Under the pieces are notes generated by a model. It was given only the letters and a program-made list of their open reading frames with translations, was not told the DNA's origin and did not search any database. From IMG/VR virus record IMGVR_UViG_3300020183_000011: a stretch of 64,000 nucleotides of DNA; one strand, given 5' to 3'. Shown piece after piece: positions 9,280 to 14,699 of this stretch (the stretch's first letter is position 1; each line of letters begins with the position of its first letter). A program made the translations under genes and the position numbers. Origin of the DNA: a virus.

Positions 9280-9646
9280 TTTTCTTAATGCTATAAACGA
9301 GAACAAGAAGGATCTATTTACAGACCCTCAAGCAGAGAAGGACTATAATGCCTTTATCATAAACAAAGGCCTATCATTCTTTCCAGACACAGTCTTATAT
9401 GCCAACCAGATGAACGTGATCAGGGATATTCCTAAGAAGTGGCAATTTGAGTTCCTCAAGAACTCTATCCCAAAGAAAAAGAGGTTTTCAAAATGGCATA
9501 AGAAGGAAGCCACTACAGACAGCCTTAAGCTTATCATGAACCATTACAAGTACTCTGAAAAGAAAGCTTATGAAGTATTAAATATCTTGACACCCAAGCA
9601 GTTAATAGAACTCCAACAAGCCTATGATAAGGGCGGTAGAAACTAG
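9266..9646 (+). CDS. 62: Clamp loader small subunit gp62
   Basis: PFDFLNAIN, YNAFIINKGLSFFPDT, KKRFSKW; synteny. Confidence 0.92.
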   Translation: MTPFDFLNAINENKKDLFTDPQAEKDYNAFIINKGLSFFPDTVLYANQMNVIRDIPKKWQFEFLKNSIPKKKRFSKWHKKEATTDSLKLIMNHYKYSEKKAYEVLNILTPKQLIELQQAYDKGGRN

Positions 9647-9652
9647 AAACCT

Positions 9653-9660
9653 TATAAATA
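9653..9660 (+). promoter_or_regulatory. T4-type late promoter TATAAATA
   Basis: Exact gp55 consensus; further copies at 11988, 33669, 35259, 38002, 43787, 49671, 50602 and 57973, mostly just upstream of gene starts. Confidence 0.75.
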
Positions 9661-9694
9661 TATTATGTAATTAAATAAAGAAAGTGATTTTATA

Positions 9695-10132
9695 ATGTCT
9701 ATAGCAATGGTGTATTATGATTGGACACCTGATGCAATGTTAGAAGTTGACTTGATCGAACCAGATAACTTCCTCAAAGTCAGAGAAACTCTAACCCGCA
9801 TCGGTATAGCGTCTAGAAAAGACAAGAAGCTATTCCAGTCATGCCATATACTACATAAACAAGGTAAGTACTTCATCGTACACTTTAAAGAATTGTTTGC
9901 CCTTGATGGCAAAGAATCTGATATCTCTATGTCCGATATCGAGAGACGAAATGTCATAGCTGAATTACTACAAGATTGGGGTCTGCTTAAGATTTTAGAT
10001 AAATCCAAGGCAGAACCAAAGGCTTCTCTATCTCAGATCAAAGTTGTTTCATACAAAGAAAAATCTGAGTGGGAATTAGTACCGAAATATAACATCGGCG
10101 GTATTAAACGTAACGTTACTATTAATAACTAG
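9695..10132 (+). CDS. regA: Translational repressor RegA
   Basis: FLKVRETLTRIGIAS, QSCHILHKQGKYFIVHFKELF, LVPKYNIG. Confidence 0.97.
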   Translation: MSIAMVYYDWTPDAMLEVDLIEPDNFLKVRETLTRIGIASRKDKKLFQSCHILHKQGKYFIVHFKELFALDGKESDISMSDIERRNVIAELLQDWGLLKILDKSKAEPKASLSQIKVVSYKEKSEWELVPKYNIGGIKRNVTINN

Positions 10133-10140
10133 GAGTTTTT

Positions 10141-10341
10141 ATGAGCATCAAACTTGATTTAACAATTGAAGAAATTAATACCATTCTTCGTTCTTTGGGT
10201 AAACACCCATTCGATGAGATCGTTGTATTAATCTCTAAAATTAAACAACAAGGTGAAATTCAACTTGCAGAGCAACAAAAATTAGCAGCAGAACAAGCTA
10301 CAGCTGCTGAACAAGCGCAATCAGAAACACCAGCTGAATAA
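10141..10341 (+). CDS. Hypothetical protein
   Basis: AGGAG SD; coiled-coil-like sequence. Confidence 0.6.
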   Translation: MSIKLDLTIEEINTILRSLGKHPFDEIVVLISKIKQQGEIQLAEQQKLAAEQATAAEQAQSETPAE

Positions 10342-10559
10342 TAACAGGTTTATTACTTTTTAATACTTTTAACTAGTCCTTTTTAATAAATATTGTATAA
10401 GTAATTATGTACATTAAATCAAAGTCATGATATAATGTATCTGTATGGTTGAATGATTGTACAAAGTTATATAGGCCTCAAGGTAGACCTTTATCTTATT
10501 GATATCTCTACTGACATGAGTTTATAAACGCAATATTTTATAAACAAAGGAGAACTACT

Positions 10560-10631
10560 ATGTGGACAAAACCAGCTGCAACTGAAATGCGCTTCGGTTT
10601 CGAAGTAACAATGTACGTAATGAACAAGTAA
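10560..10631 (+). CDS. pqqA: Pyrroloquinoline quinone precursor peptide PqqA
   Basis: 23-aa [26 protein letters not shown] with the ExxxY core; AAGGAG SD; own promoter at 10408-10436 and own terminator; not in the ORF track. Confidence 0.95.
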
Positions 10632-10667
10632 TTGTTCTAGTACATGGACTGGGGATACTCGGTCGGC

Positions 10668-10699
10668 AAAGGGGACTTAAAATGTCCCCTTTATTTTTT
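10668..10699 (+). terminator. Intrinsic terminator after pqqA
   Basis: AAAGGGGAC-TTAAAAT-GTCCCCTTT followed by ATTTTTT. Confidence 0.8.
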
Positions 10700-10758
10700 A
10701 CTATGTACATTAATTAATAATTATGGTATAATGGGCATATTAGTCAAGGAGAATCAAA

Positions 10759-11016
10759 ATAGCTATACCAAATAAAAAGTTTAAACCAAGACCAGACGAA
10801 AGGCAAGGCCTTGCAGTAGACGTGCCTGATGGCCAGTTCGAGAAGGCTTTCAGGAAGTTTAGAAACAAAGTACAAGACTCTGGTCTTTTACAAGAGATAC
10901 GTGATCGTATGCAGTACGAGAAACCATGCATCGCGCGTAAGAAAGCCAAGAATCAATCTCGTAAGAGATGGCTTAAGAAAGTAGCATCTACAAAGTTACC
11001 ACCAAAACTATATTAA
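10759..11016 (+). CDS. rpsU: Ribosomal protein bS21 homolog (probable ATA start; track start is GTG 10822)
   Basis: GLAVDV..GQFEKAFRKFRNKVQDSGLLQEIRDRMQYEKPCIARKK; AAGGAG SD 7 nt before the in-frame ATA at 10759. Confidence 0.88.
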   Translation: MAIPNKKFKPRPDERQGLAVDVPDGQFEKAFRKFRNKVQDSGLLQEIRDRMQYEKPCIARKKAKNQSRKRWLKKVASTKLPPKLY

Positions 11017-11026
11017 GGAGATCATA

Positions 11027-11089
11027 ATGGGTAATCGTGATAAGAAAAAAGAATCAAAAGGCAGACCTAAAAAAGATAAGGCAAAATAA
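11027..11089 (+). CDS. 20-aa lysine-rich micropeptide MGNRDKKKESKGRPKKDKAK
   Basis: TAAGGAG SD; stop overlaps the next ATG. Confidence 0.6.
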   Translation: MGNRDKKKESKGRPKKDKAK

Positions 11090-11292
11090 TGGTAGCAAAG
11101 AATGACATCACTAGTGATAGCATCTTATCAAAGTCAGCCACAAAAGAATTTGATAAGAACTTTGATGCCATCGATTGGTCAGTTAAGTTAGACGCTCCAC
11201 AAGACGGAGACCAAAGACTTAACAATGAAGGCAAACTTGAACATTATTATGGAGGACAGTGGAATGCAACAGGACAAAAAGAACCGACCTGA
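11089..11292 (+). CDS. Hypothetical protein
   Basis: Coupled ORF. Confidence 0.55.
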   Translation: MVAKNDITSDSILSKSATKEFDKNFDAIDWSVKLDAPQDGDQRLNNEGKLEHYYGGQWNATGQKEPT

Positions 11293-11491
11293 GTTACCAA
11301 GGGTCGACGTGCAAAAAGCAGTAAACGCTGTAGGTAACAGGTATTATATGATCTTGATGGCAGCACACATGGCCCGAGACATTACTAAACGAAGAGACTT
11401 CTTAGATCGTAAAGCAGAGAAGCTCCACTATTATGGCTATAAACCTATCAATCAAGCATTGCAGGATATTATAGATGACGCAGGATTATAA
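11264..11491 (+). CDS. rpoZ: RNA polymerase omega subunit-like protein
   Basis: PRVDVQKAVNAVGNRYYMILMAAHMARDI...KPINQALQDI resembles RpoZ ARVTV..A...IGNRF.LVL.AA.RAR...K....AL.EI; GGAGG SD before ATG 11264. Confidence 0.75.
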   Translation: MQQDKKNRPELPRVDVQKAVNAVGNRYYMILMAAHMARDITKRRDFLDRKAEKLHYYGYKPINQALQDIIDDAGL

Positions 11492-11597
11492 GTACACTCA
11501 ACAAGAATGGGATAAGACGGTAGGTTGGGGCAAAGTCCCCGAGGATCGTGAAGTTAAACCCGAGCCTCAAAAAGAAAATAACCTACCAACTAAATAG
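11475..11597 (+). CDS. 40-aa hypothetical protein MTQDYKYTQQEWDKTVGWGKVP...
   Basis: Short ORF below the track threshold. Confidence 0.5.
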   Translation: MTQDYKYTQQEWDKTVGWGKVPEDREVKPEPQKENNLPTK

Positions 11598-11684
11598 GTA
11601 TATACTGACGTATACCAAACGGCATATAAATTTTCGAGCGCGTTTCAATAAATAATTATAGAAACAACAACTAAGGAGATTTAA

Positions 11685-11933
11685 ATGAAAGCTTTGGTAT
11701 TACTCATAACTTTATTTTTTAGTATAGCTTCACATGCAGCAGATGTTGATCAAAACAATATCAACAATCAACAGTTTTCTAGACGACCATATGCAAAGGT
11801 TCCAGCTCCAAAAGCTGAAACATATGAAGGCGACGTGGTTAGTAAAGAAGAGCAAGTTGCTGAAGATAAATATAAGACACTACGTCTGCATCAATTAGGT
11901 CGTAGACCATACGCAGAAAAGAATACAGATTAA
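11685..11933 (+). CDS. Small secreted protein with two RRPY repeats
   Basis: Signal peptide ending ASHA; QQFSRRPY and HQLGRRPY; TAAGGAG SD. Confidence 0.7.
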   Translation: MKALVLLITLFFSIASHAADVDQNNINNQQFSRRPYAKVPAPKAETYEGDVVSKEEQVAEDKYKTLRLHQLGRRPYAEKNTD

Positions 11934-12056
11934 GTATTACTTAGGGTTTTGTGAGGTTCCCTCGTATTAAAATAACCTCACAAGTTGTATAAATAGTATT
12001 GCCTATGCCTTCGGGGTAGGTATTTTGTTAAACTCGCTTAAATAAGGAGAAAATAA

Positions 12057-12542
12057 ATGCGAACAACAAACGTTTCATTTGGCCCTATCTGGCCTTCAAC
12101 AGTTGGATTTGATAACATCATTAATGAGCTAGACGCTTTACTTAATGCTCAAACTCCAGCATCAACCTTCCCACCTCATAACATTATTAAGGTAGACGAC
12201 TATCAATACATCGTTGAACTTGCAATCGCAGGCTTTAATAAACAAGAGGTAACTATCACCCTTAAAGATGGACTACTCGAGATCAAAGGAAATAAAAATC
12301 CTGATGATGTAGATGTACAGTACCTCCATAAGGGAATTGGTACAAGATCATTCATTAAGACTATTAGACTTGCTGACACTGTTGAAGTTAAAGGTGCAGA
12401 GTTCAAGGATGGTATCTTACGTGTTGCTCTTGAGAATGTAATCCCTGAATCTAAGAAGCCTCGTAACATCGAGATCTCTGACTCACTTCCACTAATTCAA
12501 CCCAAAGAAAAAGAGTTGTTAGTAGAAAAGACTGATAGTTAA
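12057..12542 (+). CDS. Small heat-shock protein Hsp20 (IbpA-like)
   Basis: FPPHNII, ELAIAGF, YLHKGIGTRSF, GAEFKDGIL, PESKKPRNIEI. Confidence 0.95.
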   Translation: MRTTNVSFGPIWPSTVGFDNIINELDALLNAQTPASTFPPHNIIKVDDYQYIVELAIAGFNKQEVTITLKDGLLEIKGNKNPDDVDVQYLHKGIGTRSFIKTIRLADTVEVKGAEFKDGILRVALENVIPESKKPRNIEISDSLPLIQPKEKELLVEKTDS

Positions 12543-12576
12543 AGGGTAGGGGAGAGCAATCTCCCCTCATAAATAT

Positions 12577-13099
12577 ATGATGAAGAATGAATTGACAAAA
12601 GACTTAGTTTCTTATCCGTTTTTACGGAGGGGAAACTATCAACTAAAAGTTTCAGTACTTAAAAATATGAGTGTCGTGGTCGTAGGTAATCATCTAATGG
12701 ACATTGATAAGTTTTTTGTAAAACATTTTAGTAACTTAGAAACAGCAGCAGATTTTATAGAATTTACATTATTAAAGGATGAATATGGCGGACACTAAAT
12801 TATTAATCATTAAATTGATCAGCAGCGAAGAGATCTTATGTACTCAAATCTCATCAGGCGAGGGTGTAATGGTCATTAAAGATGCAGTATTATTGATCTA
12901 TAAACAAACTAAAGAAGGTAATATGTCAGTAGGTTTTGCTCCATATATGCCTTATGCAGATGGAACGATCTCACTAAATCACAGCGCTATTGCTTCAAAC
13001 AGTTATCCAAAACAAGAACTAGCAGACGAATATAATCGTATCTTTGGTTCAGGCATCATGATAGCTGGTGCAAACGACGCAGCATTTAAAGCCAAATAA
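12577..13099 (+). CDS. Two hypothetical genes (12577-12798; 12785-13099, a conserved T4-like small beta protein)
   Basis: IIKLISSEEI...YNRIFGSGI pattern typical of genes following hsp20 in T4-like phages. Confidence 0.6.
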
Positions 13100-13135
13100 T
13101 TGTACTTTTAATCCCAGACGGGATATAATTATATT

Positions 13136-13540
13136 ATGAAATCAGTTCCAGACTTCATTGAAGGCCATAAGCCTTCTAATGATATATTGATCTTAGGCCA
13201 ATGTCCCTCTTCTAAAACTAAACCATTTAAGAATGGGACATTTGCACGTCTGAGCAAATGGTTAGAAACTGTAGATGTGCATGCATTTGCATTCCATAAC
13301 GTGATACCTGATAAGATCAATAGTTATGACATTAAAGACGTACAGTATAAGAAGCTATACACTGTATCGCATGGTCGAAAGAAGATCATCGCATTAGGTG
13401 GGTTTGTAGAACGCGTATGTAAGAAGTATAACATACCACACTATAAGATAGATCATCCTTCTCCAAGGAATCGTAACTTAAATGACCCTAAATATGAAGA
13501 GCAGATGTTAAAACGACTAAGAGATTATCTCAATGATTGA
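13136..13540 (+). CDS. Uracil-DNA glycosylase superfamily protein
   Basis: ILILGQCP, NV, KIIALG and HPSPRN motifs. Confidence 0.75.
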   Translation: MKSVPDFIEGHKPSNDILILGQCPSSKTKPFKNGTFARLSKWLETVDVHAFAFHNVIPDKINSYDIKDVQYKKLYTVSHGRKKIIALGGFVERVCKKYNIPHYKIDHPSPRNRNLNDPKYEEQMLKRLRDYLND

Positions 13541-14699
13541 GACTACACAATACTATGACGAGTACATAAGATATTTTAGTCTTGCAAAGGATCAGCAAGA
13601 AAAGTGTAACGTATCTCTTAATCCACCGTATGGTATGATACCGCATGCAGAGTCGGACATGAATGATGATCTACTTCATTATATTGAACTATATGATGTG
13701 GTAGAACGTAAGTACGCAGGGTTTTCTCAGATAGTTAATGATTGCTTTTATGGCTGGACCGAAGATCACCCATACTGGAAAAAGATGGAAGCTGGTAAGA
13801 TCACTCGTCAACGGGATACGATAGCTAAGAACTGGACAGGAAAACACTCAGACTTTAAGTTACCTGAATGGCTGTACATCTTTATCCTCCATCGTGTATG
13901 CGGTTCTGCGATCAACTATTCTACAAAACCAAGTGGATATCACAATACCATACTATTTGGTTTACACAACTGTAAGACTATTGAAGACATGGTCGAGATG
14001 GTGAATAACTATCCATCATCGTTCTATACTTCTGTAGGTTATCAGTTCCCAGCTTTTCCTAAACCACCAGCAGATTCAAGATACAAAAAGGGTGGAGACT
14101 ATTACCTATCAGAGTATGCACCACGATTAGCAAGAGAACTAGCAGAGTATTTAGAATCTGGTGGTAAACGATCATTAAGAGAGATCGGTTCATTCATGTT
14201 GGATTGGAACGTTAAGAACGACTTAAGACAGTACCATTTTCAATACGCAGCAGTGGTTGCAGACGTGGCTGACTGGTATCCTCAGTATGTAGATAAGACA
14301 TCACCATTTTACTACGGTACAAATGCAGTAGAGTGTATATCATATCTTGCTAAACCTACATCTAAGATGAAACAAGAACAATTCTTAGATCAAGTAATGA
14401 TGAAGATATATGAAGATACTAAAGCATACCCATACAATGCAGAAGACGTATGCTGTGACTTCATCCGATGGGTAGAGAACTATGTCCGACCAGGATCTGA
14501 CTACGATCATCTTGATTTTGATAGTGTATGGTCGTCATGTAAGATTAAAGACCATCCATTTGGTAGACAGAAAGCAATGCTACAACTAGGATTAGTAGAC
14601 ACATTTAATAGTATGACAGCTCATCCATCAGATGATGCTATCTTAAAAGCAAACAACATGACTGTAGAACAATATAAGGAACTATGCAAAACACTCTAA
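13533..14699 (+). CDS. aGPT-Pplase-like helical DNA-modification enzyme (paralog 1)
   Basis: YDVVERKY, FQYAAVVADV, YGTNAVECI and C-terminal AEDVCCDFIRW resemble family motifs (F.AY...D, GPGA..GL, E..LCEF.KY). Confidence 0.6.
   Translation: MIETTQYYDEYIRYFSLAKDQQEKCNVSLNPPYGMIPHAESDMNDDLLHYIELYDVVERKYAGFSQIVNDCFYGWTEDHPYWKKMEAGKITRQRDTIAKNWTGKHSDFKLPEWLYIFILHRVCGSAINYSTKPSGYHNTILFGLHNCKTIEDMVEMVNNYPSSFYTSVGYQFPAFPKPPADSRYKKGGDYYLSEYAPRLARELAEYLESGGKRSLREIGSFMLDWNVKNDLRQYHFQYAAVVADVADWYPQYVDKTSPFYYGTNAVECISYLAKPTSKMKQEQFLDQVMMKIYEDTKAYPYNAEDVCCDFIRWVENYVRPGSDYDHLDFDSVWSSCKIKDHPFGRQKAMLQLGLVDTFNSMTAHPSDDAILKANNMTVEQYKELCKTL

Follow-up and report, generated by a model that had tools for sequence, protein, structure and literature searches.

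The window, i.e. the whole 64-kb stretch of viral DNA analysed here, contains a host-type metabolic gene inside a genuine phage genome: pqqA, which encodes the peptide precursor of PQQ, with viral genes on both sides. The observation as a whole, first made in an initial annotation of the window, is confirmed as real. Moreover, pqqA is kept by selection in this phage lineage, as it is present in 15 of 15 close relatives and has a dN/dS of 0.09-0.17. From the sequence evidence, we consider it likely that this pqqA is a host-derived auxiliary metabolic gene (AMG) with which a lytic T4-like phage of Methylophilaceae would supply the PQQ precursor.

The window encodes a Methylophilaceae-type PqqA

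The initial annotation had called a 23-codon open reading frame pqqA and had noted its resemblance to the Methylophilaceae type.

10560-10631, plus strand: pqqA coding sequence, 23 codons and stop

The translation is as described there, and the 23-residue peptide exceeded the cut-offs of both PqqA families, i.e. Pfam PF08042 (42.4 bits; cut-off 21.1) and the NCBIfam equivalog TIGR02107 (40.4 bits; cut-off 20). The E-x-x-x-Y pair is present as E15-V-T-M-Y19; based on established PqqA/PqqE biochemistry, Glu15 and Tyr19 are presumably the residues that become PQQ. The Methylophilaceae assignment was borne out as well: 29 of 129 sampled Methylophilaceae copies and 21 of 128 viral copies encode exactly this peptide, which represents the commonest Methylophilaceae PqqA type, and its 11-residue peptide type was found almost exclusively in Methylophilaceae records.

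Viral and Methylophilaceae pqqA genes were gathered with degenerate DNA patterns, e.g. for FGFEVTMY. All viral PqqA copies contain the E-x-x-x-Y motif, the retention of which is partly built into the search pattern. Outside the codons constrained by the pattern, W2, P5 and R11 are invariant among 107 distinct viral PqqA sequences, and position 9 is either E or D. As judged from these sequences, the N-terminal recognition part of PqqA is conserved, its binding to PqqD being a prediction.

pqqA stands alone in the replication module of a T4-like phage

The window represents the replication module of a T4-like phage and, by CheckV figures for related contigs, about a third (~35%) of a full genome of ~180 kb. 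On the 5' side of pqqA are the genes for a Rad50-like gp46, CobS, the gp45 clamp, the gp44/62 clamp loader and RegA; on the 3' side are those for bS21, an omega-like protein, Hsp20, ligase, gp43 polymerase, UvsX, gp41 helicase, primase and RNR. The three genes directly 3' of pqqA (10741-12542) are small and host-like, i.e. bS21 (PHROGs match, E = 3e-12), an RNA polymerase omega/Rpb6-like ORF (Pfam E = 3e-4, which is weaker than the cut-off) and Hsp20. Neither tRNAs in the window nor a close GenBank relative of the window were found.

The gene had been described as stand-alone, with no pqqB-E in the window. In tblastn searches with PqqB, C, D and E, neither the window nor any of 127 other viral loci gave a match, in agreement with that description; of 120 bacterial control loci, by contrast, 27 contained the operon by the same query, with 50-65% identity. 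Similarly, no pqqB-E were found in an enlarged viral set of 289 loci (2.1 Mb; the window and 288 related loci), five larger related contigs had neither PqqC nor a true PqqE, and a scan of the other ORFs in the window found nothing PQQ-related. Finally, among 50,697 phage records, Methylophilus PqqB and PqqC had no match besides two mislabelled Acinetobacter chromosomal contigs, and no true PqqE was found, the only matches being distant radical SAM proteins with 21-27% identity. The two contigs, which are recorded as 'Acinetobacter phage MD-2021a' (L008, i.e. CAKLQF020000010.1, and CAKLQH020000055.1), contain a chromosomal pqqABCDE operon, ppk and gcd; they are apparently bacterial and were rejected as examples of a phage with a pqq operon. 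Further pqq genes or a dehydrogenase could lie in the part of the window phage genome beyond the visible third.

pqqA is predicted to be an insulated transcription unit

The expression signals of pqqA are as follows.

10408-10436, plus strand: promoter TGTACA-17-TATAAT with TG extension, member of a phage promoter class of ~12 sites
10443-10559, plus strand: predicted 5' leader, ~117 nt, its start deduced from the -10 box
10548-10552, plus strand: Shine-Dalgarno sequence AGGAG, 7 nt before the ATG (GGAG at 10549-10552)
10668-10699, plus strand: intrinsic terminator with a 9-bp stem (10668-10692), a 7-nt loop and a T run to 10699
10704-10732, plus strand: next promoter, same class, for the bS21 gene, starting 5 nt past the pqqA T run

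The strong Shine-Dalgarno sequence, separate promoter, leader of about 120 nt and terminator reported initially could thus all be located. Because pqqA has its own promoter and terminator and is adjoined by the next promoter, we conclude that it is organized as an insulated monocistronic unit.

The promoter belongs to a class, taTGTACAttaa-N11-gGTATAATg, with ~12 plus-strand sites in the window, and members of this class are also present upstream of the genes for DNA polymerase, helicase, primase and bS21. The core word occurred 22 times compared to 10.4 times expected, a count that was reached by 0 of 100 shuffles. Plus-strand taTGTACAttaa-class sites are at window positions 2045, 2320, 4504, 10408, 10704, 17620, 22664, 25320, 32104, 47809 and 48687. 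By sequence, the class is phage-wide and would drive replication as well as takeover genes; a phage factor might recognize its upstream box, which differs from the TTGACA consensus. Early transcription of pqqA would be expected only by way of the promoter class that it has in common with replication genes and the likeness to T4; by the same likeness, host shut-off may occur during infection.

The AAGGAGAA word has a median position of -13 in viral and bacterial pqqA copies alike. Using a strict definition, there are two strong plus-strand terminators in the 64 kb, one of which is the pqqA terminator. Moreover, a terminator-like hairpin was detected 3' of pqqA in 60 of 125 viral and 107 of 119 bacterial copies compared to 2 in control windows.

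The pqqA leader contains a covarying hairpin

The whole pqqA transcript is predicted to be structured (folding z = -3.96 versus shuffles), and two hairpins were identified in the leader.

10482-10512, plus strand: hairpin H1, arms GGTAGA and TCTACT within the conserved CTCAAGGTAGAC ... CTCTACTGA
10520-10545, plus strand: hairpin H2, just 5' of the ribosome-binding site, from single-sequence folds

In seven T4-like relatives, the H1 consensus is CTCAAGG(T/C)AGAC, a loop and CTCT(A/G)CTGA, and RNAalifold of these seven gave a helix of 6 bp with 2 compensatory pairs and 0 broken pairs. We then used a search pattern that tolerated non-pairing bases at both variable positions. The pattern matched 77 IMG/VR contigs, and an intact pqqA was located 31-48 nt downstream in 59 of 78 matches (IMG/VR and window). 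All 29 distinct IMG/VR versions of H1 found 5' of pqqA pair at both variable positions, in four combinations; by contrast, 10 of the 15 or so matches without pqqA, which served as a control, are non-pairing. These ~15 matches, which are GC-rich coding matches with non-pairing bases, were rejected as true H1. A covariance analysis of the leader had been proposed in the initial annotation, and H1 covaries. The H1 motif occurs once in the window and in 0 of 117 bacterial pqqA upstream regions, and no Rfam families were found at 9600-12100 of the window. An exact 40-mer from the window leader had no match in IMG/VR. H1 is confined to one T4-like sub-lineage, while the coding sequence is the feature common to all phage groups.

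The sequence of H2 is variable, yet single-sequence folds contain the hairpin in each of the seven relatives; RNAalifold missed H2, as this variable sequence could not be aligned. The invariant CUC of the leader is paired in most folds with the GAG of the ribosome-binding site. As to what the leader structure does, translation control and message stability are guesses.

Phage pqqA is conserved and under purifying selection

To determine how far pqqA follows the phage lineage, we sorted 80 RegA relatives from IMG/VR by RegA identity to the window.

RegA at least 88% identical, at least 500 nt of downstream sequence: 15 loci; pqqA in 15 of 15, 190-660 nt after regA, 14 intact and 1 with an intron
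RegA 78-84% identical: ~17 loci; pqqA in 5
RegA less than 78% identical: 45 loci; pqqA in 0

Among the 107 distinct viral pqqA sequences, the synonymous divergence is 0.57 and the non-synonymous 0.085. dN/dS is 0.085 for viral and 0.076 for bacterial pqqA and, without the codons fixed by the search pattern, 0.17 and 0.155, respectively. We conclude that purifying selection on phage pqqA equals that on the host copies.

The nucleotide identity between phage and bacterial pqqA is up to 96%, including the ribosome-binding site. The local GC content around pqqA is 0.35-0.40, and that of the phage is 0.38. A 15-nt inverted repeat, TNATGA-N3-TCATNA (e.g. TCATGAAAATCATGA and CTAATGATTTTCATTAG), is located ~130 nt 5' of bacterial pqqA (L129-L248); it was detected for 39 of 91 Methylophilaceae pqqA copies and in 0 of 91 control windows and is a candidate operator for a regulator. 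What phage pqqA copies retain is mostly the half-site-like ATGATTTT (28 of 104 copies compared to 2 in controls).

A group I intron splits pqqA in relatives of the window phage

In four loci of the H1-motif scan, the pqqA reading frame is broken after ...EMRFG. The inserts of these four loci match the Rfam group I intron model RF00028 over the full model length with 65-96 bits (gathering score 50). Using the junction as a pattern, we found pqqA split in 14 IMG/VR contigs (L268, L307, L253, L300 and L400-L409), after the first base of codon 14 of the 69-nt gene. Rfam default filters missed several of these introns and permissive filters recovered more; with the latter, 10 of the 14 contigs reached the gathering score or more (65-96 bits).

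The pqqA introns are 231-278 nt long, have no ORF, end with a G, and follow a U that pairs with a G in the P1 helix. Moreover, the intron guide and the Gly13 codon covary at the third base of the codon (GGA/UCC, GGU/ACC and GGG/CCC). In all 11 contigs in which both exons were located, the joined exons encode a canonical PqqA; because the exons still join to a perfect PqqA, the spliced message appears to be under selection. One intron carrier has a RegA that is 99% identical to that of the window.

L268:4123-4361, minus strand: intron in pqqA (L268 is the same contig as L325)

The pqqA in the window is intron-free, the equivalent site being between 10599 and 10600. The intron junction was found in 0 of 361 Methylophilaceae genomes, and our literature searches found no paper linking a group I intron with pqqA. 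Intron-split alleles provide a natural handle on expression, as spliced junction reads can be sought in metatranscriptomes.

pqqA is present in diverse methylophages and escapes annotation

Searching viral sequences with the peptide by tblastn, as had been suggested, gave matches in Venkman, P19250A, MEP301, MEP401, MEP402, four Melnitz genomes and a 41-kb spring podovirus. Stand-alone pqqA is thereby present in nine cultured methylophage records of sipho-, podo- and myovirus types, nine being the cultured methylophage records that matched and other named methylophages falling outside this count. In the GenBank methylophage records, pqqA is either unannotated or lies under an antisense 'hypothetical protein', consistent with the initial suspicion that gene callers miss it. 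The 'hypothetical protein' coding sequences at L001:2961-3056 (Melnitz) and L002:2067-2195 (MW202481), both of which run antisense to pqqA, are probably spurious and mask the gene. The papers on the methylophage isolates do not mention PQQ genes.

The FGFEVTMY pattern matched at least 120 IMG/VR contigs, with a full PqqA ORF at every match listed. By gene context, with two shared neighbouring proteins required, the contigs listed formed 14 clusters, including a Venkman-like cluster of 71, an unnamed group of 20 and the T4-like group of the window with 15; further clusters are Melnitz-like, MEP401-like and others. In several siphoviruses, pqqA is antisense to the neighbouring genes. Among the T4-like phages, pqqA adjoins the baseplate hub gene in Melnitz and follows regA in the window lineage, and these two look like separate acquisitions. 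Altogether, it is about an even call whether pqqA is a near-universal hallmark of Methylophilaceae phages that was taken up independently ~10 times and missed in annotation, with one T4-like lineage having a covarying leader and a putative self-splicing intron.

A proposed precursor supply for the PQQ machinery of the host

Each of five Methylophilaceae genomes contains one pqqC and one pqqE but 3-7 dispersed copies of pqqA; in Ca. Methylopumilus universalis (1.3 Mb), there are three pqqA genes, each more than 100 kb from pqqC. While pqqB-E are not present in cis in the viral loci, these five genomes would offer pqqC and pqqE in trans. Each PQQ made destroys one PqqA peptide, while the enzymes are reused. 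In Methylosinus trichosporium, an orphan pqqA that was missed by gene prediction reaches ~12,000-14,000 RPKM and pqqB-E 160-370 RPKM, i.e. the pqqA transcript is 30-80 times more abundant (PMC3615186). The host copy numbers and these RNA-seq data agree with a bulk need for the precursor and not for the enzymes.

In the mechanism that we propose, the phage would transcribe pqqA from its own sigma-70-type promoter, of the class common to its replication genes. The resulting mRNA would be short and monocistronic, begin with a structured leader and end at its own terminator. PqqA would then be bound by host PqqD, cross-linked between Glu15 and Tyr19 by host PqqE and trimmed by proteases, and host PqqB and PqqC would complete PQQ, which would serve the periplasmic methanol dehydrogenase that powers the cell. 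Because the peptide is identical to that of the host, host PqqD, PqqE, PqqB and PqqC would process phage PqqA; and because one peptide is spent per PQQ and the enzymes are reused, the phage would need the precursor gene alone to keep or raise PQQ output. The initial annotation had likewise proposed that the phage supplies just the consumable substrate following host shut-off, which would agree with all of our observations. By analogy from copy number and the RNA-seq of another methylotroph, precursor supply may limit PQQ synthesis in Methylophilaceae, and pqqA may benefit phage yield. PQQ is recycled rather than consumed, and a need for fresh PQQ within one infection is therefore assumed; this is the weakest link of the mechanism, in which leakage or new apo-enzyme must create the need.

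Alternative explanations for phage pqqA

An alternative is that pqqA mainly serves a methanol dehydrogenase which the phage encodes beyond the window, apo-enzyme and precursor being brought together. In two relatives, L282 and L288, the leader, pqqA and terminator are followed ~190 nt downstream by an XoxF-like methanol dehydrogenase gene, the product of which bears a signal peptide and shares 83-84% identity with Ca. Methylopumilus XoxF.

L282:1-542, minus strand: methanol dehydrogenase, partial (cut by contig end)
L288:5645-5953, plus strand: methanol dehydrogenase, partial (cut by contig end)

L282 and L288 are probably of the type of the Baikal population VP_266, which encoded both genes. 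The pairing in these phages and the fact that only ~35% of the window phage genome is visible favour this explanation. However, pqqA in the window adjoins bS21, no methanol dehydrogenase was found in the 64 kb, and the cultured methylophage genomes, including the complete 141-kb Melnitz, have none, yet all of them contain pqqA (nine records); similarly, no such gene was found in any GenBank phage. We therefore regard a dehydrogenase partner as an unlikely main reason for pqqA in the window phage.

pqqA could also be a neutral hitchhiker, i.e. a host cassette that is useless to the phage and repeatedly picked up by recombination with the many near-identical host copies. The identity of up to 96% to bacterial copies, which extends over the ribosome-binding site, would be expected in this case, as would the host-like upstream motifs and terminators that accompany many phage copies. 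A neutral cassette is, however, difficult to reconcile with a single syntenic site in 15 of 15 close relatives, a dN/dS as low as in the hosts at a synonymous divergence of ~0.5-0.6, the rewiring to a phage promoter with a lineage-specific covarying leader, and exons that are intact around the intron, making this explanation quite improbable.

Still harder to support is a regulator or decoy that would redirect host metabolism, either by titration of PqqD and PqqE with the peptide or through the structured RNA working as a sponge or small RNA. The conserved, covarying leader structure fits with an RNA function, but H1 is restricted to one T4-like sub-lineage and it is the coding sequence that the phage groups have in common. 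Moreover, the peptide is the host substrate; because it is identical and has Glu15 and Tyr19 intact, the enzymes cannot tell phage PqqA from their substrate. We consider a regulator or decoy highly improbable.

Finally, the initial annotation had named a host-derived misassembly as a possible source of error, and the host-identical peptide and very short gene are compatible with misassembled host DNA or an attachment-site remnant; this is practically excluded because the same regA-pqqA synteny is repeated in 15 independent contigs from different metagenomes, and, moreover, phage genes and phage-class promoters are present on both flanks, pqqA is found in complete genomes of isolated phages, the gene is whole with its ribosome-binding site and not a 3' fragment, and the local GC content equals that of the phage.

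Relation to known systems

The supply of PQQ precursor by a host-derived phage gene, which we favour, is not a new idea. Coutinho et al. 2020 (Microbiome 8:163, PMC7678222) reported PqqA together with a methanol dehydrogenase in the Baikal population VP_266 and gave the same rationale, i.e. sustaining methanol oxidation. Like the window phage, VP_266 is a freshwater Methylophilaceae phage with a gene for the PQQ precursor; it pairs pqqA with a dehydrogenase, as do the window relatives L282 and L288, whereas in the window pqqA stands alone beside bS21 with no dehydrogenase in 64 kb. The VP_266 paper describes one metagenomic population and does not include cultured phages, expression signals, leader structure or an intron. 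Beyond this paper, our literature searches gave no report of viral pqqA. Apparently new here are the wide distribution over methylophages, both cultured and uncultured, the autonomy of the cassette, the covariation in the leader and the presence of an intron.

The chromosomal pqqA of Methylophilaceae resembles that of the window in the identical 23 residues, the ribosome-binding site and a terminator ~20 nt downstream; also, orphan pqqA copies away from pqqBCDE are the rule in the hosts, as in the phage. By contrast, the window copy resides in a phage, has a promoter of the phage class and lacks TNATGA-N3-TCATNA, and its leader hairpin is lineage-specific and absent from all 117 bacterial upstream regions. 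The pqqA of Methylosinus trichosporium OB3b is likewise stand-alone, was overlooked in gene prediction and has a transcript level far exceeding that of pqqB-E (PMC3615186), but it is chromosomal, belongs to an alphaproteobacterial methanotroph and encodes another peptide type.

A parallel exists in psbA of cyanophages, which encodes D1. In both cases, the phage carries only the part that is rapidly consumed and uses stable partners of the host. Some cyanophage psbA genes contain a group I intron, similar to the intron in pqqA of some phages here. The two differ in that D1 is a protein subunit lost to photodamage while PqqA is a peptide converted to a small-molecule cofactor, the turnover of which would have to be fast enough to count within an infection.

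Implications for methylotroph phages

The proposed role of pqqA is testable in cultured phage-host pairs, i.e. Melnitz, Venkman and the MEP phages on OM43 and P19250A on LD28. Because gene callers skip a gene of 69 nt, surveys of auxiliary genes under-count pqqA, which marks methylotroph phages across many lineages. If pqqA is indeed a near-universal hallmark, uncultured phages could be assigned to methylotroph hosts by this simple marker, and the PQQ precursor peptide would be a limiting consumable of methylotroph energy metabolism during infection. In lakes and coastal seas, Methylophilaceae, i.e. OM43, LD28 and their relatives, account for a large share of methanol turnover. Infection would directly tune C1 oxidation, as cyanophage psbA does photosynthesis, if their phages replenish the precursor routinely.
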